In this document: positions 1 to 44,989 of the stretch, one piece after another | How positions within the stretch are numbered: position 1 is the first letter of the stretch | How the letters are laid out: each line of letters starts with the position of its first letter | IMG/VR virus record: IMGVR_UViG_2695420859_000012 | Origin: a virus | Lineage: Duplodnaviria; Heunggongvirae; Uroviricota; Caudoviricetes | Strand: one strand, 5' to 3' | Length of the DNA: 64,000 nucleotides | Position numbers and translations under genes: made by a program | The notes under the pieces: generated by a model | Databases searched by the model: none | Seen by the model: only the letters and a program-made list of their open reading frames with translations | What the model was told of the DNA's origin: nothing

Positions 1-972
1 GCCGTCTTTAATGTACTTCTGTTCAGACGCCCAACTCTTACCGTATGGCGGGTTAGACAACATAAAGTCAAAGCGTGAAGCCGCAAACTCGTCGGTAGAC
101 AAGGTTGAGCCTACCTTGATGTTCTCAGGGTTGTTACCTTTGATCATCATGTCCGATTTACAAATCGCGTAGGTCTCGTCATTGATCTCTTTGCCGTAAA
201 GGTAAATATCTCGGCTGTCGTTCGGGTATTTCTCTTCAATGAAGTTTTGAGATTCAGTGAGCATACCACCGCTACCACACGCAGGGTCGTAAACGGTCAT
301 GGTCAATGGTAGCTGCTCTTTCACTGGGTCAAAAACCAAGTGTGTCATCAGCTCAATCACTTCCCTAGGTGTAAAGTGCTCACCGGCTTCTTCGTTATTC
401 TCCTCGTTGAACTTACGGATCAACTCTTCGAACACGTACCCCATACCCAGGTTAGTAAGGGCTGGCATCTTGTTGCCATCTGGGTCTTCGATCGTTTCAT
501 GAGTTAAGTTGATGTAAGGGGAAACAAACTTTTCGACGACATCAAGAAGGACTTGCTTTGAGGCCATGTGACGAATTTGCAACTTGAGGTTAAAGCATTC
601 AATGATTTCTTTAACATTATCGCTAAAGCCAAGCAGGTACTCTTCAAAGTTGGCGAGTAATATCTGTTGGTTATTCGTTGCGGTGTTGAACAGGGATTTC
701 AGGGTCCATTTAGATGTATTGTAAAAAACATAACCACTAGCCGCCTTCAATGGTTCATCATCAAGCTCCGTGGCTTGCATCTCTTCTTTTTGGAACTTGA
801 CCTCTTCAAGCACGGCTTCTTTGGTGGGTTCAAGTAACGTATCTAAACGTCGTAATACCACCATAGGTAAAATCACATCGCGGTACTTACCGCGAACGTA
901 CACATCACGTAAACAGTCGTCGGCAATGTTCCATATAAATGAGATGAGCTTGTTATGTACACTATGATCCAT
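1..972 (-). CDS. hsdM: Type I restriction-modification methyltransferase subunit (HsdM-like), N-terminal part only; gene runs off the left edge
   Basis: Own minus-strand translation from ATG at 970-972: MDHSVHNKLISFIWNIADDCLRDVYVRGKYRDVILPMVVLRRLD..., FTPREVIELM, SAM motif DPACGSGGML, N6-adenine MTase motif NPPYG; no stop before position 1. Absent from ORF track because open-ended. Confidence 0.75.
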   Translation of the reverse strand, partial: MDHSVHNKLISFIWNIADDCLRDVYVRGKYRDVILPMVVLRRLDTLLEPTKEAVLEEVKFQKEEMQATELDDEPLKAASGYVFYNTSKWTLKSLFNTATNNQQILLANFEEYLLGFSDNVKEIIECFNLKLQIRHMASKQVLLDVVEKFVSPYINLTHETIEDPDGNKMPALTNLGMGYVFEELIRKFNEENNEEAGEHFTPREVIELMTHLVFDPVKEQLPLTMTVYDPACGSGGMLTESQNFIEEKYPNDSRDIYLYGKEINDETYAICKSDMMIKGNNPENIKVGSTLSTDEFAASRFDFMLSNPPYGKSWASEQKYIKDG

Positions 973-1134
973 TTTCTTTTCCTGTTCAGTGTTGGTTGCA
1001 CCCCACAAAGTTGCTGCAACGGCTTCACTATAAATTTAAAATTCTGTTCTTTCTGTAACGCCTAAATGGCCTCTACATCGTTCGATTAACTTGTTCTACC
1101 CGGCGCTAGATTTAAGTTTATGACACCATAAAGT

Positions 1135-1176
1135 GAATCGCCACAGGTTTAATAGACTGAATCGCCACAGGTTTAA
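1135..1176. repeat. Two 18-bp direct repeats (gaatcgccacaggtttaa) separated by 6 bp, upstream of hsdM
   Basis: Exact copies at 1135-1152 and 1159-1176. Confidence 0.6.
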
Positions 1177-1204
1177 CAGACACCTCAGAGTCATTTAAGA
1201 TGAC

Positions 1205-1396
1205 TTAAAGAGAGGTGTACAGCTCGGTATTCAGACCAGTCCACTGACGGCCAACGCCGACAACTTCACCGATACCTTTGTCTTCACCCAATTTGTTTAC
1301 TTTGATGCCAACGTACCCAGGCTCAACACGATCGCAGCCTGTAAGACCCATTGTGCAAACAGCAGCCACGATCACTGCCAGTAAACCTTTCTTCAT
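1205..1396 (-). CDS. Small lipoprotein, function unknown
   Basis: 63 aa; signal peptide with lipobox LTGC (MKKGLLAVIVAAVCTMGLTGC). Confidence 0.5.
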   Translation of the reverse strand: MKKGLLAVIVAAVCTMGLTGCDRVEPGYVGIKVNKLGEDKGIGEVVGVGRQWTGLNTELYTSL

Positions 1397-1399
1397 TAC

Positions 1400-1600
1400 T
1401 TACTTCCCCTTCGAATTAATTAGTGACTTCAGAAAGTTACGACCAACATTAAAGCCGATAACAGGAGCGCCAAAAGCAACAATGATTCCAAGCATTACGG
1501 CAATATCGCTTTTAGCCGAGATCAGCGACGGAACCAGCAAACAGTAGATGAAAACTACAGATATACCTGTAGCCACTGCCATCAGATAGAGTTTGATCAT
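1400..1600 (-). CDS. Small hydrophobic membrane protein, function unknown
   Basis: 66 aa, two hydrophobic segments; abuts the lipoprotein gene. Confidence 0.4.
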   Translation of the reverse strand: MIKLYLMAVATGISVVFIYCLLVPSLISAKSDIAVMLGIIVAFGAPVIGFNVGRNFLKSLINSKGK

Positions 1601-1690
1601 GTGTTTTCCTATGTGGCTATTGTGTGTAGATGGTGAGTAAGTGTTTATATATTTTCAAGGTATAAAGGCGTCCATTCGGACGCCTGAAAA

Positions 1691-4030
1691 TTAATCTTCT
1701 AATTCATCTGTCGGTGATGTCTTCTCGCGCCTGTCATCTATTGCCTGTAACGCAGCAATGATTTCAGCTAATGGCTTCTCCCGGTACATCTCGACGATCT
1801 GTGATTTGGTGTATTTCTTCTCGCCAATTTCCACACGCCCGCTGGCGCTCTTGGGCAGGTATCCTTCCTCCAGCATGTATTCAACCAGAGACTCGACGAC
1901 GTCCAGCCCGCGAGTCGGGTCGAAGTAGAATTTCCATGAGCATTTGCCAAACGGAGGCGCGACTTTGTTTTTAATGCACTCGGCGCCAACGTCCTGTCCG
2001 ATCTTCTCTTTGCCATCCTTCATGACGGATGCACCCAGACGGATGCGCACCGACGCGTAGAACTTCGGAGAGTCGCCACCCGGAGACGTAGTCGGATCGC
2101 CAAACATCACACCAATTTTGGTACGCACCTGGTTCAAGAAGATGATGCACGCGTTGTACTTACGCGCCCAAAGCGCCAGAGTAGGGAAGTTCGCACTTGT
2201 CGCGCGCGCCAGCGCCGTGTTGTCGTTCATGTTCAGCTGATCTTTGTCTTTCGCAGTGCCTTCTGCCATCTTGTCGAACTTCTCAGCCTTCGAGTTCGGA
2301 ACCATCGACGCCAGAGAGTCGGCTACGATGCAGATAGGGGCTGTTTCCGGAATAAGCTCTTCGTCGCGCACCAGCTTGAGGATTGTGCCGATCAGCTCTA
2401 CGGAGTCTTCGAAGGTATCCGGCTGTTTGTAGACCCACTGACCGTCATCCTCATCTGCGTTCAGGCCATTGGCTACAGCCAGGCCAACGTCAAAACTGTT
2501 TTCATGATCGAGGAATACCGCCAGACCATCTTGTTTTTGAGCGGAGATCATCGCTGCTGTTGCAAGGAATGTGTTGTGGCTGATAATCCCGTTAGACCAG
2601 AAAGAGTGTGTTTCCGGCATCGCTACGTCGAACGTTGGTGCTTCACCTTCCTCAATAGCCACGACTTCGTCGTAGAACAAGTTAGAGCCAATTACCGCTG
2701 CCAGTTGTGCAAACAGATGCTCGTTAAAACGATTCTTTCTGCCAATGAAGGAGACATAGATTTCTCGCAGTTTGTCTATTCCGACACGATCGCCGCGGCC
2801 AATAACGTGGTCTACCAGAGCGTAGTCTTCACGGGTGGTCTTGGTGAGCGACTCGTAGAGTGATTTCACTAAGCCGCTGATGTGCGGAACATAGCCTGAG
2901 TAAGTGCGGTCAAAACCAATGTCCCGTTTGGTTGCCACTGATAAACGTGCCGGAGATTCGAAACCAATCGTTGACAGAAAAAGGTCGTAATTAGAGCCAC
3001 TGAATGACAGCCGGTAATATGTATTTTCATAACCCGCGACGTGTTTTTCAGAGATAGTTGACGTAATCCCCAGATTCAGGAGCATGAGGCGAATTTGCTG
3101 TAGCAGCAGCCCACTCGCGCTCACAACCTCAATGCAGCGACCATCATTGACGTGGCATTCCAGCTCAAAGTAGCCGCGAAGGAATGCAATTTGAGCCTCG
3201 CTATTGGCGCGACGCACACTCAACGGAACCTGCTTGCCAGCAGCTTTCTCATACTCCAGACCATATTCTTTAAAAAGCAGCGAACGCACCTCTTTGCTAA
3301 ACAGCACATGGTCTTCCGAGCCGTTATGTTTTCTCGTAACTGGCATCTTGTCTGATACCAGCGAAATGAGGCGGTAGTACTCATCCTTGATGAAAGGATC
3401 TGTGTTAGAAAAATTCACTGAATTTTCAGAGGCGACGTATCCGTCAGCAATTAAATAGCCCATCAGTTTTGCGATATTGGCATCCAGGTGCTGATCGCCG
3501 AATTGATGTGTGCCAACCATTGAAGGAATCGTGTCGCCTACACTGATTTTTTCAGCATGTCGCCAGACGACATTACCTAAGTCGTCAACCACACGGATTG
3601 GGTGACGGAACGTAGCCTCGATATAACCGCCTGATGCCAGCTTAATACGCTTGAATTTGCGACGGTTGTTCCATGTCAGGTGTGAGGTCTTCTCTATCAC
3701 GCCATTTTCATTGATGAGTCCAACGTTATGCTCTACATCGCGAGTAGTGCATGTCGCTTTGTACCCTTCAATCTCAAACAACTCTTTCACTGTTACCATT
3801 CCACGCTCCGTCAGCAGCATGGTGTCTGCGGTAACACATTTCCCTGCACTTGGAGGACCGAATACTTCGACGATACGACCACATGGGAAGCCGCCATCGT
3901 AACGACCAGAAATAGCTTTGTTTAACGGTGGAAAGCCTGTATCAATCCAATGAGTTACTTTCTGAATTTCGTCGTTGCTACCGATTTTCTTTTTCAGAGC
4001 AAGTGCCAGTGCGGATTTTCCTTTTGCCAT
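1691..4030 (-). CDS. recA: RecA-family recombinase interrupted by an intein in the Walker A P-loop
   Basis: N-extein ends GRIVEVFGPPSAGK, C-extein resumes TFLATAAM... and contains IIFLNQVRTKIGVMFGDPTTSPGGDSPKFYASVRIRL, closely matching bacterial RecA as recalled; exteins total 357 aa. Confidence 0.85.
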   Translation of the reverse strand: MAKGKSALALALKKKIGSNDEIQKVTHWIDTGFPPLNKAISGRYDGGFPCGRIVEVFGPPSAGKCVTADTMLLTERGMVTVKELFEIEGYKATCTTRDVEHNVGLINENGVIEKTSHLTWNNRRKFKRIKLASGGYIEATFRHPIRVVDDLGNVVWRHAEKISVGDTIPSMVGTHQFGDQHLDANIAKLMGYLIADGYVASENSVNFSNTDPFIKDEYYRLISLVSDKMPVTRKHNGSEDHVLFSKEVRSLLFKEYGLEYEKAAGKQVPLSVRRANSEAQIAFLRGYFELECHVNDGRCIEVVSASGLLLQQIRLMLLNLGITSTISEKHVAGYENTYYRLSFSGSNYDLFLSTIGFESPARLSVATKRDIGFDRTYSGYVPHISGLVKSLYESLTKTTREDYALVDHVIGRGDRVGIDKLREIYVSFIGRKNRFNEHLFAQLAAVIGSNLFYDEVVAIEEGEAPTFDVAMPETHSFWSNGIISHNTFLATAAMISAQKQDGLAVFLDHENSFDVGLAVANGLNADEDDGQWVYKQPDTFEDSVELIGTILKLVRDEELIPETAPICIVADSLASMVPNSKAEKFDKMAEGTAKDKDQLNMNDNTALARATSANFPTLALWARKYNACIIFLNQVRTKIGVMFGDPTTSPGGDSPKFYASVRIRLGASVMKDGKEKIGQDVGAECIKNKVAPPFGKCSWKFYFDPTRGLDVVESLVEYMLEEGYLPKSASGRVEIGEKKYTKSQIVEMYREKPLAEIIAALQAIDDRREKTSPTDELED
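2573..3838 (-). mobile_element. Intein (about 422 aa) with LAGLIDADG homing-endonuclease domain, inside the recA P-loop
   Basis: Begins with Cys immediately after GPPSAGK and ends ...IISHN followed by Thr; LAGLIDADG-type blocks LMGYLIADGYV and FLRGYFELECHVNDG. Confidence 0.8.
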
Positions 4031-34453: not shown

Positions 34454-34763
34454 TTTTTACGCCATACGCGGCTAACCCCAAAAGCAGTGCAGTAATAATG
34501 AACGACGTTATTTTAGAAACAATGCCGCCAAAGAACCCACTGGAGATGGAATCTAACCGGTTAAGGAGTTTGTCCAGATTGGAGTGTTGAATACTATGTT
34601 GCGCCGGGGTCATATCACCAAAGTAGGTTTTCAGCTGATCATTGACCTCCTGGCCAATTTCTTCACGTAGCTCTTTACCTAATTTGCCAACAACCTCCCG
34701 AGCAACGATCGCGGCAATACGCTCAACTTGCTCTGTTGTAACGCTCGCCATCTCGTTCGACAT
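34440..34763 (-). CDS. Holin-like membrane protein
   Basis: Start re-called at M5 behind GGAGG (track 34440..34775); C-terminal TM ITSFIITALLLGLAAYGV. Confidence 0.45.
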   Translation of the reverse strand: MSNEMASVTTEQVERIAAIVAREVVGKLGKELREEIGQEVNDQLKTYFGDMTPAQHSIQHSNLDKLLNRLDSISSGFFGGIVSKITSFIITALLLGLAAYGVKNGLQ

Positions 34764-34844
34764 GTTTTCCTCCATGAAAAGTCAAATCGGGATGGCGGAT
34801 TTATATCACATTTCACCCTTTTATTGTAGGTGTGTACCTACCTA

Positions 34845-35078
34845 TCATTCAGCATTGCAACGGACTGATGAGAAAGCACCTACTCCTACCCATCGCCAGT
34901 TATAGATACTACCCGCTTTGTATAAGGTATAGTCGTTCACTTTTTTAACAGCATATATGGGTATGACTGTCTCCTGTCCACCAATGATAGCCTCACCGTA
35001 ACATATAGGTGTCGGCAATTTCTGGCAGCCAGTAAGAGAGAGAACAACAGCTATTATTAGAAATAATCTTTTCATCAT
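34845..35078 (-). CDS. Small lipoprotein next to tail-fibre genes (candidate superinfection-exclusion lipoprotein)
   Basis: 77 aa; lipobox LTGC. Confidence 0.45.
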   Translation of the reverse strand: MMKRLFLIIAVVLSLTGCQKLPTPICYGEAIIGGQETVIPIYAVKKVNDYTLYKAGSIYNWRWVGVGAFSSVRCNAE

Positions 35079-35085
35079 TTACTCA

Positions 35086-35694
35086 TCAGTTATACAGATT
35101 TCTATTTATTACCGGTACTCTGCCATTTACGCTAAAACTATGGCCGCCATTAAGTTGGTTTACGAATATCGAGCTAACAGTATTTCCATATGCCGCATAT
35201 CCATAAACCATTGTCATGGCTCCGCCCGGTACTGGAACAGCGAACACATTCGCATATGTTGGGATTATCGCTGGTGGGTAATCAAAAACATGCCCTCCAG
35301 AGCTGTTCCACTCCGTATTATTAAGAAAGGTAAATGAAAGTGGGATATTTGCCGTATTATAGATTTCCTCCCCTTGTGCATTGAAAAAACTCATGCCCCA
35401 AGTTTCTTTTTTGGCTATACCTTTCGAAAATACGTATATCGTGGCACTAGAGTCGCTACCCTGACCTCCGAAACTGTAAATCACCTGGTTGTTACGCACT
35501 ATTCTGTTGGCTATTAATGAAACAGCTTTCGAATAGGCAACAAAAATCATCGGTGAACGATCTGGAGATATTTGGGTGTTAAACTCTGTCCCGCCGGACA
35601 AAGAAACAACCTGCTTTCTCTGAAAAACGATAGGAGACAAAGAAGGAGACATCCAGACCTTCCCGTCAGATCGATATATCTTGCTTCCGTACAT
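35086..35694 (-). CDS. Hypothetical tail-fibre-associated protein
   Basis: 202 aa; translationally coupled to upstream ORF (TAATG); Gly/Ser/Asn-rich. Confidence 0.4.
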   Translation of the reverse strand: MYGSKIYRSDGKVWMSPSLSPIVFQRKQVVSLSGGTEFNTQISPDRSPMIFVAYSKAVSLIANRIVRNNQVIYSFGGQGSDSSATIYVFSKGIAKKETWGMSFFNAQGEEIYNTANIPLSFTFLNNTEWNSSGGHVFDYPPAIIPTYANVFAVPVPGGAMTMVYGYAAYGNTVSSIFVNQLNGGHSFSVNGRVPVINRNLYN

Positions 35695-35948
35695 TATTTT
35701 TGAAAAACCAATATGTTTAAATTACCACTAGCTCCAGACCACGAAATGGTATTTCCAGAAACCGTAAGACTTGTGTATTTTCCATTGGTTACGTCCATTA
35801 TGTAATAGTCGATTCCCAATCCCGCCTCAACCTCATATGTTCTACTTCCTGAACCAGAGGGAGTAAAATAATCGAGGTAATAAACAGGGGCCAACGCATC
35901 GACCATCTCCTGTCTTGATGGCGACCAAACCTGTGCACCATAGCTCAT
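35694..35948 (-). CDS. Hypothetical tail-fibre-associated protein
   Basis: 84 aa immediately downstream of tail-fibre gene. Confidence 0.4.
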   Translation of the reverse strand: MSYGAQVWSPSRQEMVDALAPVYYLDYFTPSGSGSRTYEVEAGLGIDYYIMDVTNGKYTSLTVSGNTISWSGASGNLNILVFQK

Positions 35949-36008
35949 AAATATATCCTTATACTTTTAAGCAGGGGCTGGTTTAGTTCCAGCCCCGATT
36001 GAAGTTGT

Positions 36009-39000
36009 TTATTCTTTAGGTGAATTTAACTTCGTTTCAAGCTCCTCAACCCTTTTGGTCAATTGCTGAATATGATGAATGAGTGGTACAACCAAACGCT
36101 CATACATCACTCCTTCAGCGACCATACCATTTGAGGAAATATCTTCTGGAGAATCATTATTTGTTGGTTCACGCCAATGGACATATTGCGGGGCAATCTC
36201 ACCAACCTCTTCAGCAATAAGGCCGTAATACCCCCAATCCTTTCGGTCACCTCGACAAATTGAACGATACCAAACAGGTCTTAATGACAAAAGTTCATCA
36301 GCATATCGATCTTGTAATGTTTCAATATCCTTTTTATAGCGCCTTGAAGAGGTTGAACGCCAAACTGTATTGATACCTGGGTTTGGATCAATGTACATAT
36401 TGGCACCGCTAGTAGTTGTGCCAATATCCCATATAGCAAACCCTCCACTACCGCCTGATTTGACAACCAGTGTTTCAGCAATAATATCCAGGTTGCCACT
36501 ATAGCCTGTCAGTGATGATCTGCTTGCATAGGAACTTAGAAGGTTTGTTACCTCTGTTTTCGTGTAAGCATTAAGGTTAGCCGCAGTCAAAGTTATATCG
36601 GCAGAGCCATCAAACGCCACACCAGCAATTTTCCTTGCTGTCTGCAATTTTGTGGCGGTTGCGGCATTACCAGTAGTGTTCTGATTACCAGTTGTATTCA
36701 CACCAGGGATTGAATCCTTAGCGGTATATACCTGCGCCCACGCTGACCATGCCGCACCTGTGTTATCTCTTCGTGAGCGAATGAAAACTGGCGCATGTGC
36801 ACCGCTCGTACCACTCCAGCCAATAAGCAACTCTCCCTCACCAGCAGCACTCGCACCTTTCATGTGCAATACGTTGCCATACATGGTCGGGTAGCTATTG
36901 TTGTACGCCTCGTACATTTGAATGCCAGCAGTGCCTTGAGTAGAGCCGCTTAACGCCGTAACTCGGCCACGAGATACCAATGTATTAATGTTGATATCGC
37001 CTGAGCCATCAAACTTAACACCATTGATGTTTCTCGCTGTTTGCAACTTCGTAGCTGTTGAAGCATTACCGTTCAAACTACCATTTACGCCACCAGTCAC
37101 ATTTAGTCCATTACCAATTGATACAGCACCGCTGGTATTATTAATTGTAATAGGTCGCAAACCGTTCCATGAACCTAATGTGTCTCCTGATGCTGTTAGC
37201 ATGAAATATGTGTTCGATCCATCATTACGGATAAAGAACCCAAAGCTACCGTAAGCAATGCGGAAACCATTTGCATATTTTGAAATGATCTCGCCAGAAG
37301 ATGTCAAACCTCCAGATAATGTACCACCGGTAAGAGGTAATGCACCGACATCAGAGGCTGTTGGTTTGTTTTTCGTGTTATATACTCTTCGCCATCCCGG
37401 AGAATAATCTGTGCCATTAAATACATAGATAAACTCCGCATTAGTGAGAGCACCAGAGACACTCGTCGTTGTGGCCGTTGTTATACGGATCGTATAATTG
37501 TTTGAGCTACTACCGTTATTAAATACCTCTATAACAGCTCCTGCCAATGGAATAACGCCACAACCAGTTTCACTATTTGGTATGGTTGCACTATTGGCAT
37601 AGGCCCACGCACATCGAGCAATCCATGACTTTGTGTTAAATGCTCCATTATTTTGCAATAACGTCACTAACTGTGCTGTTGTTATTGCTCCGCCATTACT
37701 TCCTGTAGTTAACCAACCAGTAGGAGATGCCGGGCAACCTATATTTGCTGGCGACAAGGAAATATTTGCCGAGCCGTCAAACGACACCCCATTGATAGTA
37801 CGCGCAGTCTGCAACTTCGTAGCAGTAGCCGCGTTGCCCGTTGTATTCTGATTACCAGTCGTATTAACACCTGGCAAATTAATATTCGCAGTACCATCAA
37901 AGCTCACGCCGCCGATAGTTCTTGCCGTCTGAAGTTTTGTAGCAGTTGCAGCATTACCAGTGGTGTTCTGATTACCCGTAGTATTTACACCTGGAAGGTT
38001 GATATTTGCAGAACCGTCGAAACCAACTCCACCGATAGATCTTGCCGTCTGCAATTTCGTTGCTGTACTTGCATTACCATTTAATGTTCCGGTGATCCCA
38101 CCAGTAACAGACAACGGACCTGAAACTGTTCCTCCGGTTGTTGGCAGTGCTCCAATATCTAACGGCGTCGGTTTCTGATGTGTGCTATACATCGTATAAA
38201 CAACACCATCGGTAACGCTGGAAGGCTTACTAGCTGAATATGTTGGCGATGTATAAATAGAAACTGTCGCATTTGCAGTACAATCCCAATGGATATTTAC
38301 ACGAGTCGCATAATTGCCAATCTCAACGTAAATATCATATGTATCGCCGGATGTGTTGATCCAGGCGAAATTCGTTAATCCGACAGCTGTACGCTTCCAC
38401 AAAGCACCTGTAATCCCTTTGGGGTTTCCATTGCCTGCTCGTAGAACCAGTTCTGAAATGCCTGCCTGATGTGGGGAGCCGACGTTGTAACCAGCGCCAC
38501 CAATCAATGCGATGTAAACGATGGAACTCGCTTGTGGCATGGTAACCGTAGCCAGTTTGAACCACCCTGCCCCGCCAGAGAAAGACATCGTTACTGAATT
38601 TAAAGTACCAATATCTTTCGGCGTTAATGTGATATCCGCAGTCAGTGCTTTACCGTTAACTTTTCGGTTAGATGGCACCCTGCTATTCGCATTGTCATTG
38701 GCTGCTTTAACTGCTTTTGGCGTTGCGGCCAGCGATTCACTGGTGCTGTCGACAGCACTGCTAAGTTTCACAACACCTTTAGTTGTAAGGCTTGCGTCTT
38801 CCATCGCAACTGCACCGGCAATCTCTTCAGCACGATCAGCAGCAGCTTCCGCACGGGTCGCAGCGGATTCAGCAGCAGTTTTGCTCTGAGATGCTGCCGT
38901 CGCACTGCCTGCCGCCTCTGTTGCTTTCGTGGATGCCGTCGTGGCGCTGCCCTTCGCTGCTGACGCCTGTCTGGTCGCCTCATCTTTTGAAGCAGACGCA

Positions 39001-40166
39001 GATGATGCCGATGACGCTGCCGAACTGGCGGACGATGCGGCTGCCGTTTTTGAGGATTCTGCACGGGTTTCCGACGCTTTCGCGTTCGTTTCGGATGTCT
39101 TCGCTGCGGAAGCAGACCTCGCTGCTGCGCTGGCCTGTTCAGTGGCTTCGCCAGCCTTCGTTGTGGCTGTTGAAGCAGACGATGCGGCACTTTCTGCCGA
39201 TTTTCCGGCGGCTGTGGCACTGGCTGAGGCCTGCCCGGCACTTGTTGACGCGGCACTGGCAGACGACGCAGCCGCTGTTTTTGAGCCTGCTGCAGCCGAG
39301 GCGCTCTGTCCCGCTGCCGTTTCAGAAGACCTGGCGTTCGTCTCGGACGTTTTTGCCGCCTTCGCGGAATTTCCTGCCGCCGTTGCCGAGGAAGCTGCGC
39401 TACTGGCGCTCGAGGATGCGTTCGTTTCTGATGATTTCGCTGCCTCTTTTGAGGCCGCCGCATCCCGGGCTGAGGTGGCAGCTTCTGACGCTTTCGTGGT
39501 CGCGGTGGATGCAGAAGTGGCTGCTGATTGTTGTGACGCTGCGGCATTCGTTTCAGATTTTTTCGCAGCAGTTGCACTCGCACTTGCGGCACTTTGTGAG
39601 GATGCCGCAGCGGATGCACTTTGAGACGCTTGAGAGGCTTTTTCTCCAGCGGTATTGGCGCTTTCTGCTGCTGCGGCAGCACTGGCCGCCGCCTCACGAG
39701 CTTTGTCGCCAGCAGCATCAATCGCGTCAGTGTTATTTTTATACCACTCAACGTTTTCGTTGTGCTCGTTGACGATCTGCATTAGCGGCTTAACGGTTAC
39801 TTCTGAACCGTCTTCACGCTCGATTGTCACCTCATCCAGAGCAGTCAACCAACTGCGCATGGACTTGGAATCAGCCGACATACGCGACATTAGTGCTGTA
39901 AAGCGCGCGCTAAACTGTGTTAAGTCGCCTTCATAGGTCGTAATGATTCGGCACGGAACTTCAGACTGAGTTTCGCCGGTATAAGGTTCTGAGAGAACAA
40001 TGTTCGTATCACTGGTTACGCGCTTGATCTCATACAGCTTATTGTCGGGGCCAATGACGATCATCCCCGGCAACACACCATTAGCTGTTACGTTCCAGGC
40101 TGTCCCTGCCCCAACCAGAGTATTGCTGCCCTGTGTAAATGTGATAGTACCTTCCCTGTACCACAT
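36009..40166 (-). CDS. Long tail fibre with C-terminal intramolecular-chaperone domain
   Basis: 1385 aa; Ala/Ser/Thr-rich shaft; repeated NAATATKLQTARTIGGVSFDG fibre motifs; C-terminal ...SSRRYKKDIETLQ... region resembles the S74-type chaperone as recalled. Confidence 0.8.
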   Translation of the reverse strand: MWYREGTITFTQGSNTLVGAGTAWNVTANGVLPGMIVIGPDNKLYEIKRVTSDTNIVLSEPYTGETQSEVPCRIITTYEGDLTQFSARFTALMSRMSADSKSMRSWLTALDEVTIEREDGSEVTVKPLMQIVNEHNENVEWYKNNTDAIDAAGDKAREAAASAAAAAESANTAGEKASQASQSASAAASSQSAASASATAAKKSETNAAASQQSAATSASTATTKASEAATSARDAAASKEAAKSSETNASSSASSAASSATAAGNSAKAAKTSETNARSSETAAGQSASAAAGSKTAAASSASAASTSAGQASASATAAGKSAESAASSASTATTKAGEATEQASAAARSASAAKTSETNAKASETRAESSKTAAASSASSAASSASSASASKDEATRQASAAKGSATTASTKATEAAGSATAASQSKTAAESAATRAEAAADRAEEIAGAVAMEDASLTTKGVVKLSSAVDSTSESLAATPKAVKAANDNANSRVPSNRKVNGKALTADITLTPKDIGTLNSVTMSFSGGAGWFKLATVTMPQASSIVYIALIGGAGYNVGSPHQAGISELVLRAGNGNPKGITGALWKRTAVGLTNFAWINTSGDTYDIYVEIGNYATRVNIHWDCTANATVSIYTSPTYSASKPSSVTDGVVYTMYSTHQKPTPLDIGALPTTGGTVSGPLSVTGGITGTLNGNASTATKLQTARSIGGVGFDGSANINLPGVNTTGNQNTTGNAATATKLQTARTIGGVSFDGTANINLPGVNTTGNQNTTGNAATATKLQTARTINGVSFDGSANISLSPANIGCPASPTGWLTTGSNGGAITTAQLVTLLQNNGAFNTKSWIARCAWAYANSATIPNSETGCGVIPLAGAVIEVFNNGSSSNNYTIRITTATTTSVSGALTNAEFIYVFNGTDYSPGWRRVYNTKNKPTASDVGALPLTGGTLSGGLTSSGEIISKYANGFRIAYGSFGFFIRNDGSNTYFMLTASGDTLGSWNGLRPITINNTSGAVSIGNGLNVTGGVNGSLNGNASTATKLQTARNINGVKFDGSGDININTLVSRGRVTALSGSTQGTAGIQMYEAYNNSYPTMYGNVLHMKGASAAGEGELLIGWSGTSGAHAPVFIRSRRDNTGAAWSAWAQVYTAKDSIPGVNTTGNQNTTGNAATATKLQTARKIAGVAFDGSADITLTAANLNAYTKTEVTNLLSSYASRSSLTGYSGNLDIIAETLVVKSGGSGGFAIWDIGTTTSGANMYIDPNPGINTVWRSTSSRRYKKDIETLQDRYADELLSLRPVWYRSICRGDRKDWGYYGLIAEEVGEIAPQYVHWREPTNNDSPEDISSNGMVAEGVMYERLVVPLIHHIQQLTKRVEELETKLNSPKE

Positions 40167-40258
40167 GTTGAATATGCTCCTTGATTTGGTGGGCTATCCT
40201 TGCCCACCATTAAGTATGTACCTACTTATTTTTACCGATATAAATATTTTTTTCTACA

Positions 40259-43200
40259 TTACAGAAGGCCAATTCTTACTCGTAGGACGTTGTTATCGTC
40301 ATAAACGTCAATCCGCTGACCATTTATGACCAGTCGCCCATTACCCCCGCTATTACCGTTGATCTCAAGCGTTCCATTTTTGCCGAACCGCCATCCAGAT
40401 CTACCGCTAACAAAATTGGTAGATTGCAGATCGCCTACTTTTGCATTGGTGATTGTGCCATCCTTGATATACGCACCATTCATATAGGCGATACTGTTTT
40501 CGATAACAAATGGCGTGGTGATCTTCCCGTTAACAGAGTTGACCAAACCAAACCTGTCAGCCTGCACCAAAAACTGAGAAAGGCCAGTGGTGTCGATACC
40601 AAGCGCAATACCAGCAACATACTTCTGCCCTCCGCTCGTTGAAGTTTCCATTTTCAACGTCCACGCGGTTGACACTTTTTTGTTGGTATCAGCAATAGCT
40701 GTTGCCTGCTGTTGAATTGTCGCGGTATTTCCATCCACCTCTGCTTTCAGAGTATCGATTCGCCCACTCAGAGCATTATCTGCCTGCGTTCTCGCTGTCG
40801 TTTCAGTTGTTACCGCCGCGGAAATGTTGGCTGCCGTTTGAGACTCTAAGTTTGTGATTTGAGTCGCCAATGCAGCATCTTGCTCTGTACGCGTTTTCGT
40901 TTCGGTTGCTACAGCCGCTTTAATATCCTCTTTGTATTGAGAGGTCAGCTTGGTGATCTGAGACGACAACGCCGAGTCAGCATCAGTTCGAGCCTGCGTT
41001 TCAACTGCAACGGCCGCACTAATATCTTTCGCTGTCTGTGCTTTTAAACTTGAAACCTCTTTTGTTAAAGCGGTATCACCATCAGCACGAGCCGTTGTTT
41101 CTCTGGCAAGAGATGCCTCGAGATCATTAGCTTTTGCTGTAAGAGACGAAATCTGAGTGGACAATGCACTATCGGCATCAGTCCTTGCCTTTGTCTCTAC
41201 AGCAACCGCTGCGGCAATATCAGTTCCGGTTTGTGCTCGCAGGCTGTTAATTTCTCGTGAGAGCGCCTGGTCAGCACTTGCTCTGGCCTCCTGCTCCTGA
41301 GTGATGGCAGCGGATATATCACCGTCAACCTTTGACTGAAGCTGGTTTATTTGTTTGGCTAACGCAGAGTCCCCGCTTGCTCGGGCCTCCTGCTCACTAC
41401 GTATTGCAGCAGAAATATCATCATCAACCTTTGCCTGAAGTTGGGTGATCTGGCTTGCCAGAGCCGAATCTTCCGTTGCTCGGGCTTCTTGCTCTTCCTT
41501 AATAGCTGCGACGATATCGTTGCTTACTTTCGACTCAAGCTGAGTGATCTGTGTCGTCAGAGCTTCATCGGCAGATGTGCGAGCCTCCTGCTCTGTACTA
41601 ATCGCCGCGCTGATATCTCCTTCAAACTTAGATTGCAGCTGAGTGACACGCTTTGCCAACGCTTCATCGCCATCGGCACGAGCGGTGGACTCTTCCAGAA
41701 TACTGGCCTTAATGTCTTCGCCAATTTCTACGCGAATTTCCTCAACCTTCGTGGCCATTGCAGACATATCATCAGCAAAGGTTTTCTGTGTTGTTGCGAT
41801 CTTCGCGTTATTGACCATCTGCTTGTGCTGGTCTTCATCTTGACGAAGAGCTAGGTCAATATTTGTTTTGGCTAACGCCTCAATGTTCGTAGTCAGTTCT
41901 GCACTGGCACGATCGACCTCTGCAACCGTCTTTTTCATTTCTTCAACGGCAGCGGAGCTTTCCTCTACCGTTGACTGCAACACTTCCAGTTGTTTAGCGT
42001 TTGCAGCATCGCCTTCAACACGAGCCTCGCTTTCCTTAGCAATAAGAGCCGCCGCTTCATCTCTTGCAGCCTTTATTGCCTCGACTGTATTAGCGAGAGC
42101 TTTATCGTGTTCAGATACGGTGTTTTCGATTTCAACAATTGCAGCATCAGTAGCATCAATTTTTTCAAACGCTTCATTGACCTTGTCGATCGTTGCCGAA
42201 ACCTCACCTTTAAGCTCGGTTTGTGCGTTCTCCAAAGCATCGCTACGCTCGTTGAATTTTATTTCAAAACCCGCGAGGTTATCGCTGAACTGCTTATCTA
42301 ATTCAGCTATATCTTCCTTAACGTCGTTTACCGACCCCTCCAAAGATTCGACGCTCTGGTTGATATGCTCATTTAACTCGTCAACTGCTTCTTGAGAGGC
42401 TTTGCTGTTGATGTCCTCAAGCAGAGCCTGACCAAGCTCGGAAGATGTAATTTTGCCAGCCAGGAACGACAGTACATCGCGAGTTGTCGCCTCTGTACCC
42501 AAGTTTGAGTTCGGAGGGCTTAACATACCTCGCTTGTTCGATGCTCGAACCCAGTAATACCACGTTTCGCTATCCCCAAGGCCAGCATGTGTAAAGGTGG
42601 TGCTTGCAGACTCTGCGATCAGTTTCGCCGTATCCAGATTGTTGGTCTGGGATGCGTAAACATTAATGTGATCAAGGTCTACCGAATCTGGATTAACCCA
42701 ATTCAGTATCACATTACGATAGTCTCCAACGGCCGTTAATGACGTTGGTGCATCCGGCGGTGTCATTGTGCCCAGCACCTGATAAACGGTACTGATAATT
42801 TCTGTTTTTTTACCGTTGAATGAAACCGCATACAGTTGGAAGTCGTAGCGTCCATTCTCCGCGACATTAACGATTTCGTATTGTTCTTCGGTTACACGCG
42901 CCGATTGCCAGTTCGATACATTGTTTTCATCAGAACGTCGCCAACTGATCCAATACTCTGGAGATTTCCCTTCCCATGTTGCAGTCAGTTTTACTGACAG
43001 GTTGCCCGGGCTTGAGAGGTAAGTCCCTTCAGTGATTTGCAAATTAGACGGCTTGGAGTAAGTCGGGTCCAATACCGTCGTATTCTGCGGGATAAGCGTT
43101 GCACCATTGTCGATCGCCTCATATTTAGACGGATTGTTTTCAACAGCGGTGATGTCAAAGCTACCCGACGTTTCCCCCTGAGCGATGTTAACGATGCGAA

Positions 43201-44989
43201 CGCGCATAGGTTCGAGATCTGGTTCTGTAATTGTCCAGACACCGTTCAAAACAGGCGTTTCCGCTGACGACAGAGCTTTTGAAAACGTAACCTTTGTTAT
43301 GTTTTCGCCAGTTTCAAGAACATCGCGCTCAACGATTTTGCCTTCCTGATTCAATATCCGAATAAAGCTGCCGCTTTTAGCTAACGACACAGGCGCATCG
43401 AGAGTGATGCTGTTTTTGGTAAACTCCACAATTCGACCGGAGTTACGTTTACCTGCACGATATTTGTTCTGAATCAGAACGGTTTCACCGGGCATCAGAA
43501 ATGAGGCGTCTAAGCCGGCAGTAAATGTAATTACATCCGACTCCATTCTGGCGGTATACAAAAGCCACAAACCAACTCGGTGAGCCTGGCCTCGGCTTGT
43601 ACATCCAAATGCTACGACTTCTGTTTTACGCTCACCATAACGGCGCATTGCGTCCTGATCTTCAACGTACTCGATGTTTTGCTTATAACCGTCCTCCTTG
43701 TTGTTGTAGGTTACGAGCGCAACGGATGGGCGATCTTTACGCGCAGAACCTTTATAGGTAAACAGTCCATCTTTGACGTTGGAGTTGGTAAACATCATTA
43801 CTGGATCTGATGGGCTATCCTGCATGATGTTAACCATGCCACCAGCCCAAAACACCATGCCGCGGAATGCACCGGCAATATCCTGAATTAATCGGTATGC
43901 GTCTTGTCGACTGGTGATCTGCGTATTGATTGCAAAGCGTTTCTCTTTACCCCCAAAGCCATCATCGACCTCTTCGTCACAATATCGACCAATCTGGTAG
44001 AGCTGGCCGAGGTCAATCATGGATTCCGACACAAATTGCCCAAGACCATACCGAGTATTGGTAAGCAAATCGTAGAGAATCCACGCAGGGTTTGAAGAAG
44101 ACAACAGCTTAAAAGTACCGTCCCATACGCCGACATAAGTATTGGTGTATTCGTTGTAGTTTGACGGTACTCGGATTTTGATACCGCGCACCAAATACGA
44201 ACGGGAAGGCATTGTGCTACCAAACTGCTCTGAATTGACCTTCAAGCCAACAAGAGCAGAGTTAGGGTAGTTCATTGGCGTGTCGACAATCTCACCTATG
44301 GAATCAACCCATGTGTCGTTGTAGAGGTACTGGCTACTGTTATCATCTGTAAGACGAATCACCCTAACCTTGTATGCACGACCAGGCTTAGGTAGTTTCA
44401 GCTCATAGCTACGGTAATACACGCCGGTTTTCTTTGCCGTTAGCGTGATATCAACGCTTTTCTCACCTTCTGCCACTACATCAGAAAATGTTGCGTCTCC
44501 GTTGGCGATCTGGAATTTGTACTTCACCGTAGTGCCATTTGTATCGCCAGAGCTTTTATCAACGCTACGTAAAGAGGGGAATTTCATGATGACACGAACG
44601 CGATCAGCTTCATCGTTATCGATTGAAACCGTAACGTCGTGTGTTTTTTTAAGCTGAATATTTACGGACTTAGGCGTTTCGACAAAATCAAAACCAGCCA
44701 TTGGCGTCTGGTCTTGTGAGCCGTCACGAAAATCCCATGTAATACCGCTGAAGTTGGAAGAGCCATCTTCATTCAAGATCGGTAAATCGTCGATGAAGAT
44801 CGACTTTGCGCCATTTACCAGGCCACCGATAACCCCCTCGCCAAGAAGGTCGAGGATGGCTGCCATAGCACGAGAATTGACAGTATCATCAGCTTCAACC
44901 GGGGTACGGCTGGAGCTTTTACTTTTCTTGCCACCAGCACCGGCAATAAGAAGCGGTAATTTTTTCTTCTTGAACTGTTCCATGTCCAA
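40259..44989 (-). CDS. Central tail fibre / host-specificity protein (lambda gpJ-like)
   Basis: 1576 aa following gpI-like gene; contains about 33-aa tandem coiled-coil repeats. Confidence 0.75.
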   Translation of the reverse strand: MDMEQFKKKKLPLLIAGAGGKKSKSSSRTPVEADDTVNSRAMAAILDLLGEGVIGGLVNGAKSIFIDDLPILNEDGSSNFSGITWDFRDGSQDQTPMAGFDFVETPKSVNIQLKKTHDVTVSIDNDEADRVRVIMKFPSLRSVDKSSGDTNGTTVKYKFQIANGDATFSDVVAEGEKSVDITLTAKKTGVYYRSYELKLPKPGRAYKVRVIRLTDDNSSQYLYNDTWVDSIGEIVDTPMNYPNSALVGLKVNSEQFGSTMPSRSYLVRGIKIRVPSNYNEYTNTYVGVWDGTFKLLSSSNPAWILYDLLTNTRYGLGQFVSESMIDLGQLYQIGRYCDEEVDDGFGGKEKRFAINTQITSRQDAYRLIQDIAGAFRGMVFWAGGMVNIMQDSPSDPVMMFTNSNVKDGLFTYKGSARKDRPSVALVTYNNKEDGYKQNIEYVEDQDAMRRYGERKTEVVAFGCTSRGQAHRVGLWLLYTARMESDVITFTAGLDASFLMPGETVLIQNKYRAGKRNSGRIVEFTKNSITLDAPVSLAKSGSFIRILNQEGKIVERDVLETGENITKVTFSKALSSAETPVLNGVWTITEPDLEPMRVRIVNIAQGETSGSFDITAVENNPSKYEAIDNGATLIPQNTTVLDPTYSKPSNLQITEGTYLSSPGNLSVKLTATWEGKSPEYWISWRRSDENNVSNWQSARVTEEQYEIVNVAENGRYDFQLYAVSFNGKKTEIISTVYQVLGTMTPPDAPTSLTAVGDYRNVILNWVNPDSVDLDHINVYASQTNNLDTAKLIAESASTTFTHAGLGDSETWYYWVRASNKRGMLSPPNSNLGTEATTRDVLSFLAGKITSSELGQALLEDINSKASQEAVDELNEHINQSVESLEGSVNDVKEDIAELDKQFSDNLAGFEIKFNERSDALENAQTELKGEVSATIDKVNEAFEKIDATDAAIVEIENTVSEHDKALANTVEAIKAARDEAAALIAKESEARVEGDAANAKQLEVLQSTVEESSAAVEEMKKTVAEVDRASAELTTNIEALAKTNIDLALRQDEDQHKQMVNNAKIATTQKTFADDMSAMATKVEEIRVEIGEDIKASILEESTARADGDEALAKRVTQLQSKFEGDISAAISTEQEARTSADEALTTQITQLESKVSNDIVAAIKEEQEARATEDSALASQITQLQAKVDDDISAAIRSEQEARASGDSALAKQINQLQSKVDGDISAAITQEQEARASADQALSREINSLRAQTGTDIAAAVAVETKARTDADSALSTQISSLTAKANDLEASLARETTARADGDTALTKEVSSLKAQTAKDISAAVAVETQARTDADSALSSQITKLTSQYKEDIKAAVATETKTRTEQDAALATQITNLESQTAANISAAVTTETTARTQADNALSGRIDTLKAEVDGNTATIQQQATAIADTNKKVSTAWTLKMETSTSGGQKYVAGIALGIDTTGLSQFLVQADRFGLVNSVNGKITTPFVIENSIAYMNGAYIKDGTITNAKVGDLQSTNFVSGRSGWRFGKNGTLEINGNSGGNGRLVINGQRIDVYDDNNVLRVRIGLL

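Follow-up and report, generated by a model that had tools for sequence, protein, structure and literature searches.

In phage T5, as in the DT57C-type fibre LtfA (PDB 8hqz), a long lateral siphophage fibre ends in an intramolecular chaperone of ~113-133 residues. The chaperone of T5 pb1 is released by cleavage between Thr1263 and Ser1264, a reaction in which Lys1269 activates Ser1264 and which the substitution S1264A blocks (PMC4690869). C-terminal S74 domains are also found on several classes of tail fibre in the BASEL phages, including fibres with an N-terminal coiled coil (bioRxiv 10.1101/2024.10.28.620165; 10.1101/2024.09.12.612763), and are missing from cryo-electron microscopy (cryo-EM) maps of the mature BASEL virions (bioRxiv 10.1101/2024.10.28.620165). 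In the side tail fibre (Stf) of Ur-lambda, residues 102-393 form the proximal coiled coil of a trimeric fibre (PMC12617516), and SSU5-type phage-plasmids have been described as common in Enterobacteria (PMC9600943). Here, we describe a fibre gene at positions 36009..40166 (minus strand) of a 64,000-nucleotide (nt) stretch of DNA, hereafter the window, from a virus of the class Caudoviricetes (IMG/VR record IMGVR_UViG_2695420859_000012). With a probability of roughly 85%, we interpret this gene as encoding the side or lateral tail fibre of an SSU5-type Escherichia coli phage-plasmid, with a built-in, self-releasing chaperone at its C-terminus.

The sequence-only reading had proposed one long fibre of 1385 amino acids (aa) at this position, and the gene is indeed a single, intact open reading frame (ORF) of 4158 nt on the minus strand, with an ATG start and the sequence AAGGAG 10 nt 5' of it, inside the 92-nt gap that follows the stop codon of the upstream gene. 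PHROG 3299 covers the whole protein, end to end, with 2960 bits. Its identity as a tail fibre is borne out by the Gp34_trimer family (PF21446; aa 907-1008, 101.4 bits against a cut-off of 27, E = 5.9e-29), by sequence matches in the PDB to Mu S and T4 gp34, and by matches to many tail-fibre PHROGs; an NCBIfam scan of the protein returned no family.

The evidence for the chaperone comes from a profile match, a catalytic dyad, and a predicted fold, which together support the earlier suggestion that the C-terminus resembles intramolecular chaperone/S74 domains. Peptidase_S74 (PF13884, 'chaperone of endosialidase') matches aa 1273-1329 above its gathering score (27.2 bits against 22, E = 4.8e-6), and the alignment spans positions 1-57 of the 58 in the profile. 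The domain starts with SSRRYKKDIETLQ at aa 1273 and occupies the last 113 residues, at the extreme C-terminus of the fibre protein. A database search with aa 1194-1385 retrieved 74 homologues, most of them with a precomputed PF13884 annotation, and across an alignment of 49 of these, with identities as low as ~25%, no variation occurs at Ser1273, Ser1274, or Lys1278, nor in the motifs RPV and YGLxAEE. Ser1273 (36348-36350) is the predicted nucleophile and Lys1278 (36333-36335) the predicted general base, and the arrangement Thr1272|Ser1273...Lys1278 has the same Ser-x4-Lys spacing and the same preceding Thr as T1263|S1264...K1269 of T5 pb1 (PMC4690869). The C-terminal module also matches the chaperone region of the T5-type L-shaped fibre 8hqz directly, if weakly, in sequence (E = 0.015).

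In an AlphaFold2 model built from the 49-sequence alignment, the predicted local distance difference test (pLDDT) score is 80-96 in each 10-residue block over aa 1273-1383, and the modelled chaperone consists of short strands, short helices, and a long C-terminal helix, resembling the mixed alpha/beta chaperone with a C-terminal helix of T5 pb1. When the model was compared with the PDB using Foldseek, the best 11 matches were all intramolecular chaperones (7dc3, 3gw6, 3gud), with the ICA domain of MyRF at the top (7dc3; E = 8e-5, probability 1.00), and all other matches had probabilities below 0.1. Profile, catalytic residues, and modelled fold thus agree, which supports the assignment to the ICA/S74 chaperones and places the domain in one family with the chaperones of K1F endoNF (3gw6), the GA-1 neck appendage (3gud), and MyRF; the window protein differs from these in its passenger, which is a long non-enzymatic fibre and not a tailspike depolymerase or a transcription factor. 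As in T5 and K1F, the fibre most likely cleaves itself at Thr1272|Ser1273, in which case the 1385-aa precursor (141.3 kDa) is predicted to yield a mature fibre of 1272 aa (128.0 kDa) and a released chaperone of 113 aa (13.3 kDa). Upstream of the scissile bond, the tip (aa 1194-1272) appears as short beta-strands with pLDDT ~50, in a monomer model only.

The complete fibre is a mosaic of an SSU5 anchor, a lambda-type coiled coil, a PF03406 motif, Mu S and T4 gp34 domains, and a swappable tip-plus-chaperone cassette. Its parts, and the long ORFs that overlap it, are as follows.

36009..40166, minus strand: complete side or lateral tail fibre gene (ORF; PHROG 3299 end to end; 100% identical copies on E. 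coli plasmids)
39714..40166, minus strand: N-terminal anchor, aa 1-151, specific to the SSU5 lineage (amino acid identity to SSU5-like fibres)
38811..39713, minus strand: Ala/Ser-rich coiled-coil rod, aa 152-452 (heptads, Fourier analysis, lambdoid Stf homology)
38670..38792, minus strand: PF03406, 'Phage tail fibre repeat', aa 459-499, present once, where the coiled coil ends (E = 1.9e-19 on a sub-sequence)
38097..38660, minus strand: beta-rich domain, aa ~503-690, matching only PHROGs of unknown or tail function (e.g. phrog_21552, phrog_11029)
37752..38078, minus strand: repeat units 1-3, aa 697-805, tandem copies of GNA(A/S)TATKLQTAR..GV.FDG(S/T)ANI(N/S)L with PGVNTTGNQNTT linkers
37092..37751, minus strand: Mu S/S'-like domain followed by a T4 gp34-type trimerisation domain, aa ~806-1025 (PF21446, PDB matches)
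36984..37070, minus strand: repeat unit 4, aa 1033-1061, 5' boundary of a swappable cassette (identity to the Cyrano fibre drops from 97% to 20% directly after it)
36717..37001, minus strand: variable internal cassette, aa 1056-1150, replaced by unrelated sequence in Cyrano (20% identity, 97% on both sides)
36528..36707, minus strand: repeat unit 5 with a conserved linker, aa 1154-1213, junction for alternative tips (97% identity to Cyrano)
36351..36527, minus strand: distal tip of the mature fibre, aa 1214-1272, candidate receptor-binding end adjoining the scissile Thr1272|Ser1273
36012..36350, minus strand: intramolecular chaperone/Peptidase_S74 auto-cleavage domain, aa 1273-1385 (profile, dyad, predicted fold)
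38768..39772: span of three overlapping long ORFs, at 38768..39751 (minus strand, 327 aa), 38792..39772 (plus strand, 326 aa), and 38929..39624 (plus strand, 231 aa)

The anchor, which presumably attaches the fibre to the tail, shares 81% amino acid identity with the N-terminus of the SSU5 fibre and 77-99% with those of other E. coli SSU5-like elements, and a homologue search retrieved close relatives only. The rod that follows it, described in the sequence-only reading as a repetitive Ala/Ser/Thr shaft at 38.8-39.7 kb, is confirmed and proves to be a strict array of 43 heptads. Ala, Ser, and Thr together make up 70-78% of every 50-aa block between aa 151 and 450 (39% Ala, 24% Ser, and 11% Thr overall), and the corresponding DNA, at ~38.8-39.7 kb of the window, has a GC content of 60-62% against 40-47% in its flanks. 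From Ala152 to Ala446 the heptads run uninterrupted and without a stutter, with Ala at position a in 43 of 43, Ser at position d (+3) in 33 of 43, and Ala at position e (+4) in 30 of 43; the Fourier power of the Ala pattern at a period of 3.5 reaches 8.1, whereas 300 shuffles gave 1.25 on average and 2.9 at most. Such a pattern reads as the signature of a coiled coil with a core of small residues and not as unstructured low complexity, and the rod would be ~45 nm long if it is an alpha-helical coiled coil (0.148 nm per residue). Nucleotides ~525-1478 of the coding sequence (aa ~175-493) are 87-93% identical to many lambdoid phage genes annotated as Stf; the tract is thus a homologue of the proximal coiled coil of lambda Stf. 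Anyone masking or discarding 'low complexity' regions of this kind should note that the present one is a coiled coil of 43 perfectly regular heptads around an Ala/Ser core.

At the end of the rod lies the PF03406 motif (KGVVKLSS...ATPKAVK), which aligns to residues 105-156 of Mu S. This family went unreported when the full-length protein was scanned against Pfam and emerged with E = 1.9e-19 when a 240-aa sub-sequence was scanned, the earlier miss presumably being due to the composition filter of HMMER, triggered by the adjacent Ala/Ser tract; it is a caution for the automated domain annotation of such fibres. The earlier proposal of phage-fibre repeats thus holds in part. Five NAATATKLQTAR...FDGS units are real, but PF03406, the family found by the fibre-repeat profile search, is a separate single motif (one copy, aa 459-499) and does not correspond to these units. 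The units have the form GNA(A/S)TATKLQTAR-x-I-x-GV-x-FDG(S/T) and start at aa 697, 737, 777, 1033, and 1166; three of the five are preceded by PGVNTTGNQNTTGNA, and units 1-3 were reported by Tandem Repeats Finder (TRF) as a 120-nt tandem array. The units are placed where modules of the fibre meet. Like the ORF, the Ala/Ser/Thr tract with its overlapping ORFs, and the C-terminal sequence, they greatly exceed what chance would produce.

Neither Pfam nor NCBIfam holds a family for the NAATATKLQTAR unit. A single-sequence search of the PDB with the repeat region gave only a marginal match to Dec (E = 0.085), and a profile of the five copies matched the C-terminal stalk of Dec from phage L (6e3c; E = 2.2e-4) and the tail fibre gp47 (8vbx; E = 3.7e-3). 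These profile matches support the view that the unit is a short fibre-stalk motif common to phage proteins. The five copies share a mean of 77% amino acid identity but only 68% nucleotide identity, and where their residues are identical they use different codons in 61% of cases, a pattern typical of old, structurally constrained repeats and not of recent duplications.

Between PF03406 and the first of these units, the region of aa ~503-690 has no Pfam match of its own beyond the neighbouring PF03406 (sub-sequence scan). The region of aa ~790-1033 is homologous in sequence to Mu S (8ju3, 5yvq) and to the C-terminal trimerisation domain of T4 gp34 (4uxe, 5nxf; PF21446); the PDB matches 8ju3, 5yvq, 4uxe, 5nxf, and 9x3r range from E = 1e-20 to 7e-37 (4uxe, 5nxf, and 9x3r ~1e-21; 5yvq 1.5e-34).

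Compared with the Cyrano allele, the fibre has 97% amino acid identity over aa 1-1055, 20% over aa 1056-1150, 97% over aa 1151-1213, and 13% from aa 1214 to the end; at the nucleotide level it is 96.6% identical to Cyrano (108 kb) over nt 1-3640 and 77.5% identical to Salmonella phage SSU5 over nt 1-515. Other E. coli SSU5-like plasmids share only the junction at aa 1193-1213 and the last 75 nt of the gene, and, with conserved flanks and divergence between them, the tip-plus-chaperone is therefore a replaceable cassette. It is present in 48 E. coli genomes, always on plasmids. Tip and chaperone vary together as one cassette, with 48% identity across both to gp60 of tonn, a T1-like phage in which the homologue (48% identical to aa 1204-1384) is a stand-alone protein of 224 aa encoded two genes after the lateral fibre gene, and many cassette homologues of ~231 aa are found on phage contigs of ~50 kb. 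The sequences thus indicate a module that is a separate gene in some phages and fused to the fibre in others. In Cyrano, the C-terminus has no S74 match and no chaperone gene follows the fibre; the C-terminus of CYRAN_21 instead resembles a repeated Mu S'-like domain (…ISHLKSNGAFSKRYWIG…).

A tentative extension, to which we give somewhat less than even odds, is that the NAATATKLQTAR units act as standardised junctions for cassette exchange among phage-plasmids, lambdoid prophages, and T1-like phages. Units 4 and 5 are exactly where the identity of the window and Cyrano alleles shifts between 97% and 13-20%, and the tip-plus-chaperone is also a stand-alone gene of 224-231 aa in T1-like phages (tonn gp60). 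In addition, the codon divergence among the units within the gene would suppress self-deletion, and orthologous copies would stay recombinogenic. If this is true, a single modular system would exist in a split and a fused state, and the units could be used for host-range engineering; the idea of modular exchange at conserved fibre motifs is an old one, and the novelty would be confined to this particular unit and to the split/fused relationship.

Taken together, the parts allow a course of assembly to be proposed. Three chains would assemble into one fibre, with the anchor (aa 1-151) docking on the tail, the ~45-nm rod of 43 Ala/Ser heptads extending from it, and the PF03406 motif serving as a collar or hinge. 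The distal, beta-structured part would comprise the Mu S-like and T4 gp34-like domains, with NAATATKLQTAR...FDGS units between them and the small tip at the end. The C-terminal chaperone of 113 residues would trimerise first and template the folding of the intertwined distal fibre, after which Ser1273, activated by Lys1278, would cut the Thr1272-Ser1273 bond, and the departure of the chaperone would expose the receptor-binding tip. The exposed tip might then mediate reversible primary adsorption, with J making the irreversible contact. The built-in chaperone would in this way take over the job of a separate downstream gene, SSU5_022 in SSU5 and Tfa in lambda.

Apart from the chaperone, T5 pb1 is unrelated to the window fibre: pb1 has no Ala/Ser coiled coil, its bullet-shaped receptor-binding domain was not found in the window fibre, and T5 fibres are attached via a separate collar protein, p132. 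With the Stf of lambda (Ur-lambda) and of lambdoid prophages the window fibre shares the location of the gene downstream of J, the homologous proximal Ala/Ser coiled coil, the PF03406 motif after it, and a presumed role in faster reversible adsorption. Lambda Stf differs in its N-terminal collar domain StfN, which is not homologous to the window anchor, in a distal half of the gp37 type where that of the window is of the Mu S/gp34 type, and in the presence of a tfa gene, in place of which the window fibre has its C-terminal S74 chaperone. Mu S/S' and T4 gp34 are fibres of myophages and are anchored differently; for Mu S, the chaperone/adhesin is supplied by a gene of its own (U), and gp34 is connected to additional fibre proteins. 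SSU5_021 and Cyrano CYRAN_21 share lineage, locus, and anchor with the window fibre (81% and 99% amino acid identity in the anchor), but the DNA of SSU5 diverges after nt ~515 and its fibre gene is followed by a separate adhesin/chaperone gene, and Cyrano has another internal cassette and another C-terminus, which lacks an S74 match. In SSU5, the fibre is followed by the separate 'receptor-recognising tail fibre adhesin' gene (SSU5_022) and then by a trio of 84-aa, 188-aa, and cor genes, whereas no tfa or adhesin gene lies downstream of the window fibre, which is followed directly by 84-aa and 202-aa ORFs and cor. Within this one lineage, the locus provides for fibre folding in three different ways: by a built-in S74 domain (window), by a separate adhesin/chaperone (SSU5), and with neither of these detectable (Cyrano).

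Several points weigh against our interpretation of the fibre. The Pfam score of the S74 domain is modest, and with the low-confidence model of the tip (pLDDT ~50) the beta-helical substrate that S74 chaperones normally template is not confirmed structurally. In a BLASTP comparison, aa 1-190 gave E = 1.5 against the N-terminus of lambdoid Stf, that is, no similarity to StfN, and the AlphaFold2 model of the anchor (aa 1-160) is poor (pLDDT 59), which bears on the tail attachment site. In RefSeq, the Prokaryotic Genome Annotation Pipeline (PGAP) calls the identical copy on plasmid pSJC33-2 a pseudogene ('incomplete; missing N-terminus'), with a start at aa 147 (window 36009-39728). Finally, what the analysis shows directly is the ORF, the domain homologies, the conserved dyad, the predicted fold, and the boundaries of the mosaic cassettes; cleavage, trimerisation, and receptor binding of this protein, together with the order of folding, the mode of attachment, and the receptor itself, are what we infer. 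Two other readings take up these points. The S74-like domain might stay uncleaved in the virion as a distal, receptor-contacting end, either as a pseudo-protease or as a permanent cap, which is conceivable in principle given that the uncleaved T5 chaperone masks the binding site (PMC4690869). We consider this quite improbable: the catalytic Ser and Lys are invariant in 49 of 49 homologues, which is unexpected for a non-catalytic domain, all fibres with an S74 domain that have been studied lose the chaperone, e.g. T5 pb1 (PMC4690869), and it is not seen in the cryo-EM maps of mature BASEL fibres (bioRxiv 10.1101/2024.10.28.620165). A less remote alternative, unlikely but deserving some weight, is that the protein is not a side fibre at a lambda-style collar and is attached to J or to the baseplate hub (as in the T5-like L-shaped arrangement), or forms the distal half of a multi-protein fibre. 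The dissimilarity of aa 1-151 to lambda StfN speaks for it, as does a Foldseek search with the low-confidence anchor model, which gave no match at E < 0.01 and only weak ones to small beta-barrels of a generic kind, among them N-terminal domains of phi92 tailspikes. However, lambda Stf likewise follows J and has the homologous coiled-coil rod, the vicinity contains neither a second fibre gene nor an adaptor gene, and another attachment would alter the detail of docking and not the nature of the fibre.

The integrity of the gene and the reality of the ORFs that overlap the rod can be judged partly from the same substitutions. A decaying remnant or pseudogene that makes no functional fibre would fit the PGAP flag on the pSJC33-2 copy, the many database entries that are 'partial' fragments (160-280 aa), and an insertion of IS2 in four plasmids; it is nonetheless very improbable, a shade more so than the uncleaved domain. 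The 4158-nt ORF of the window is uninterrupted and has a good ribosome-binding site (RBS), the Cyrano annotation has the same start and a full-length coding sequence, full-length copies are at least 96.8% identical among the matches listed, 78 genomes cover at least 80% of the gene, and 67% of the substitutions in the Ala/Ser tract fall at codon position 3. The start chosen by PGAP, at aa 147, falls exactly where the SSU5-type anchor meets the lambda-type rod. This accounts for the pseudogene call, probably an annotation artefact of the mosaic and of the low-complexity tract. The substitutions were counted against the Stf gene of phage PhiR30_1 (87.7% nucleotide identity): in the fibre frame, 53 of the 79 within the tract lie at codon position 3 (67%), 16 at position 1, and 10 at position 2, and therefore only the fibre frame is under purifying selection. 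The length of the three overlapping ORFs (231-327 aa) could suggest that at least one is a genuine overlapping gene, but we regard the chance of this as negligible: a Pfam scan of the three found no families, their compositions are extreme (rich in Arg/Gln/Pro/Leu or in Ala/Asp/Phe), the substitution pattern protects the fibre frame alone, and GC-rich runs of GCN/AGC/TCN codons (GC 60%) are expected to be stop-free in other frames. They are by-products of these GC-rich, stop-poor codon runs and not genes, and the earlier view of the long ORFs on both strands as spurious is borne out.

We return to the reading of the gene as an intact side or lateral fibre gene with a built-in chaperone and turn to its distribution. 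The gene is present, 100% identical and at full length, on the circular E. coli plasmids pSJC33-2 (NZ_CP080257) and NZ_CP022167, of ~113 kb, and the other full-length copies among the matches listed are 96.8-99% identical; of 5426 complete E. coli genomes, 78 cover at least 80% of the gene, and the top-ranked records among the matches listed have the size of plasmids (~100-126 kb). The last 582 nt of the gene match E. coli DNA at 121 places, all of them on plasmids and none on a chromosome. In four plasmids of ~100.5 kb the same fibre gene is interrupted by IS2 (e.g. NZ_CP025894 24652-30145), and some copies of the phage-plasmid are probably without functional side fibres as a consequence.

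Public databases already hold identical or near-identical proteins under the names 'tail fiber domain-containing protein' or 'chaperone of endosialidase', and literature searches found no paper on this particular fibre. The fibre is a correct but ordinary and already-known finding, in which every module belongs to a described family; as textbook tail-fibre mosaicism, it has little importance beyond correct annotation. Its useful by-products are a corrected gene model, a domain map at the level of residues, and mapped cassette boundaries. Host-range typing of phage-plasmids can benefit from the correct gene model, as the RefSeq copy is wrongly flagged and many entries are fragmentary, and the cassette boundaries, mapped to within a few residues, could guide the engineering of fibre swaps.

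The surrounding locus is a lambda-like tail module, that of an SSU5-type E. coli phage-plasmid. SSU5 and Cyrano are syntenic with it; its genes run in the order tape measure, M, L, K (with a C40 peptidase), I, J, fibre, two small ORFs, cor, holin, endolysin, and spanin, and beyond the lysis genes lie partition and replication genes (ParA-type ATPase, DnaB-like helicase, primase). Between the J stop codon and the RBS of the fibre gene there is a perfect 7-bp hairpin (GGTGGGC-AAGGATA-GCCCACC; 40188-40208, minus strand) that lacks a T-run and was not flagged by the terminator scan; the promoter and terminator scan of 34700-40400 gave fewer sites than shuffled sequences and no evidence of a separate transcription unit.

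The two ORFs directly after the fibre, of 84 aa (35694-35948, minus strand) and 202 aa (35086-35694, minus strand), overlap each other by one base. Neither has a Pfam or NCBIfam family, and their PHROG matches, PHROG 557 ('outer membrane protein') for the 84-aa ORF and PHROG 425 ('membrane associated protein') for the 202-aa ORF, are not to Tfa. SSU5 (SSU5_023/024), T1-like phages (tonn gp66/gp67), and Stx-converting phages all share this conserved pair, which is missing from this locus in Cyrano, where only a weak partial match lies elsewhere in the genome (26% identity). The idea that these ORFs are accessories of the S74 tip was rejected, as the pair follows a different fibre and a separate adhesin in SSU5 and also lies near the tail genes of T1-like and Stx phages; the two ORFs belong to the backbone of the lineage.

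The cor gene (34845-35078, minus strand) encodes a phage exclusion lipoprotein Cor of 77 aa (NCBIfam equivalog, E = 4e-23). Cor is associated with FhuA-dependent phages, and its presence suggests that the neighbouring J fibre targets FhuA. This J-type central fibre (40259-44989, minus strand; 1576 aa) carries a long, repeat-rich helical insert (...DISAAI..EQEAR..D.AL..QI.QL.SKV...) between its conserved N-terminal tip domains and its C-terminal Phage_Tail_Tip domain, and TRF reported a repeat with a 99-nt period at 41277-41494, within the J gene.

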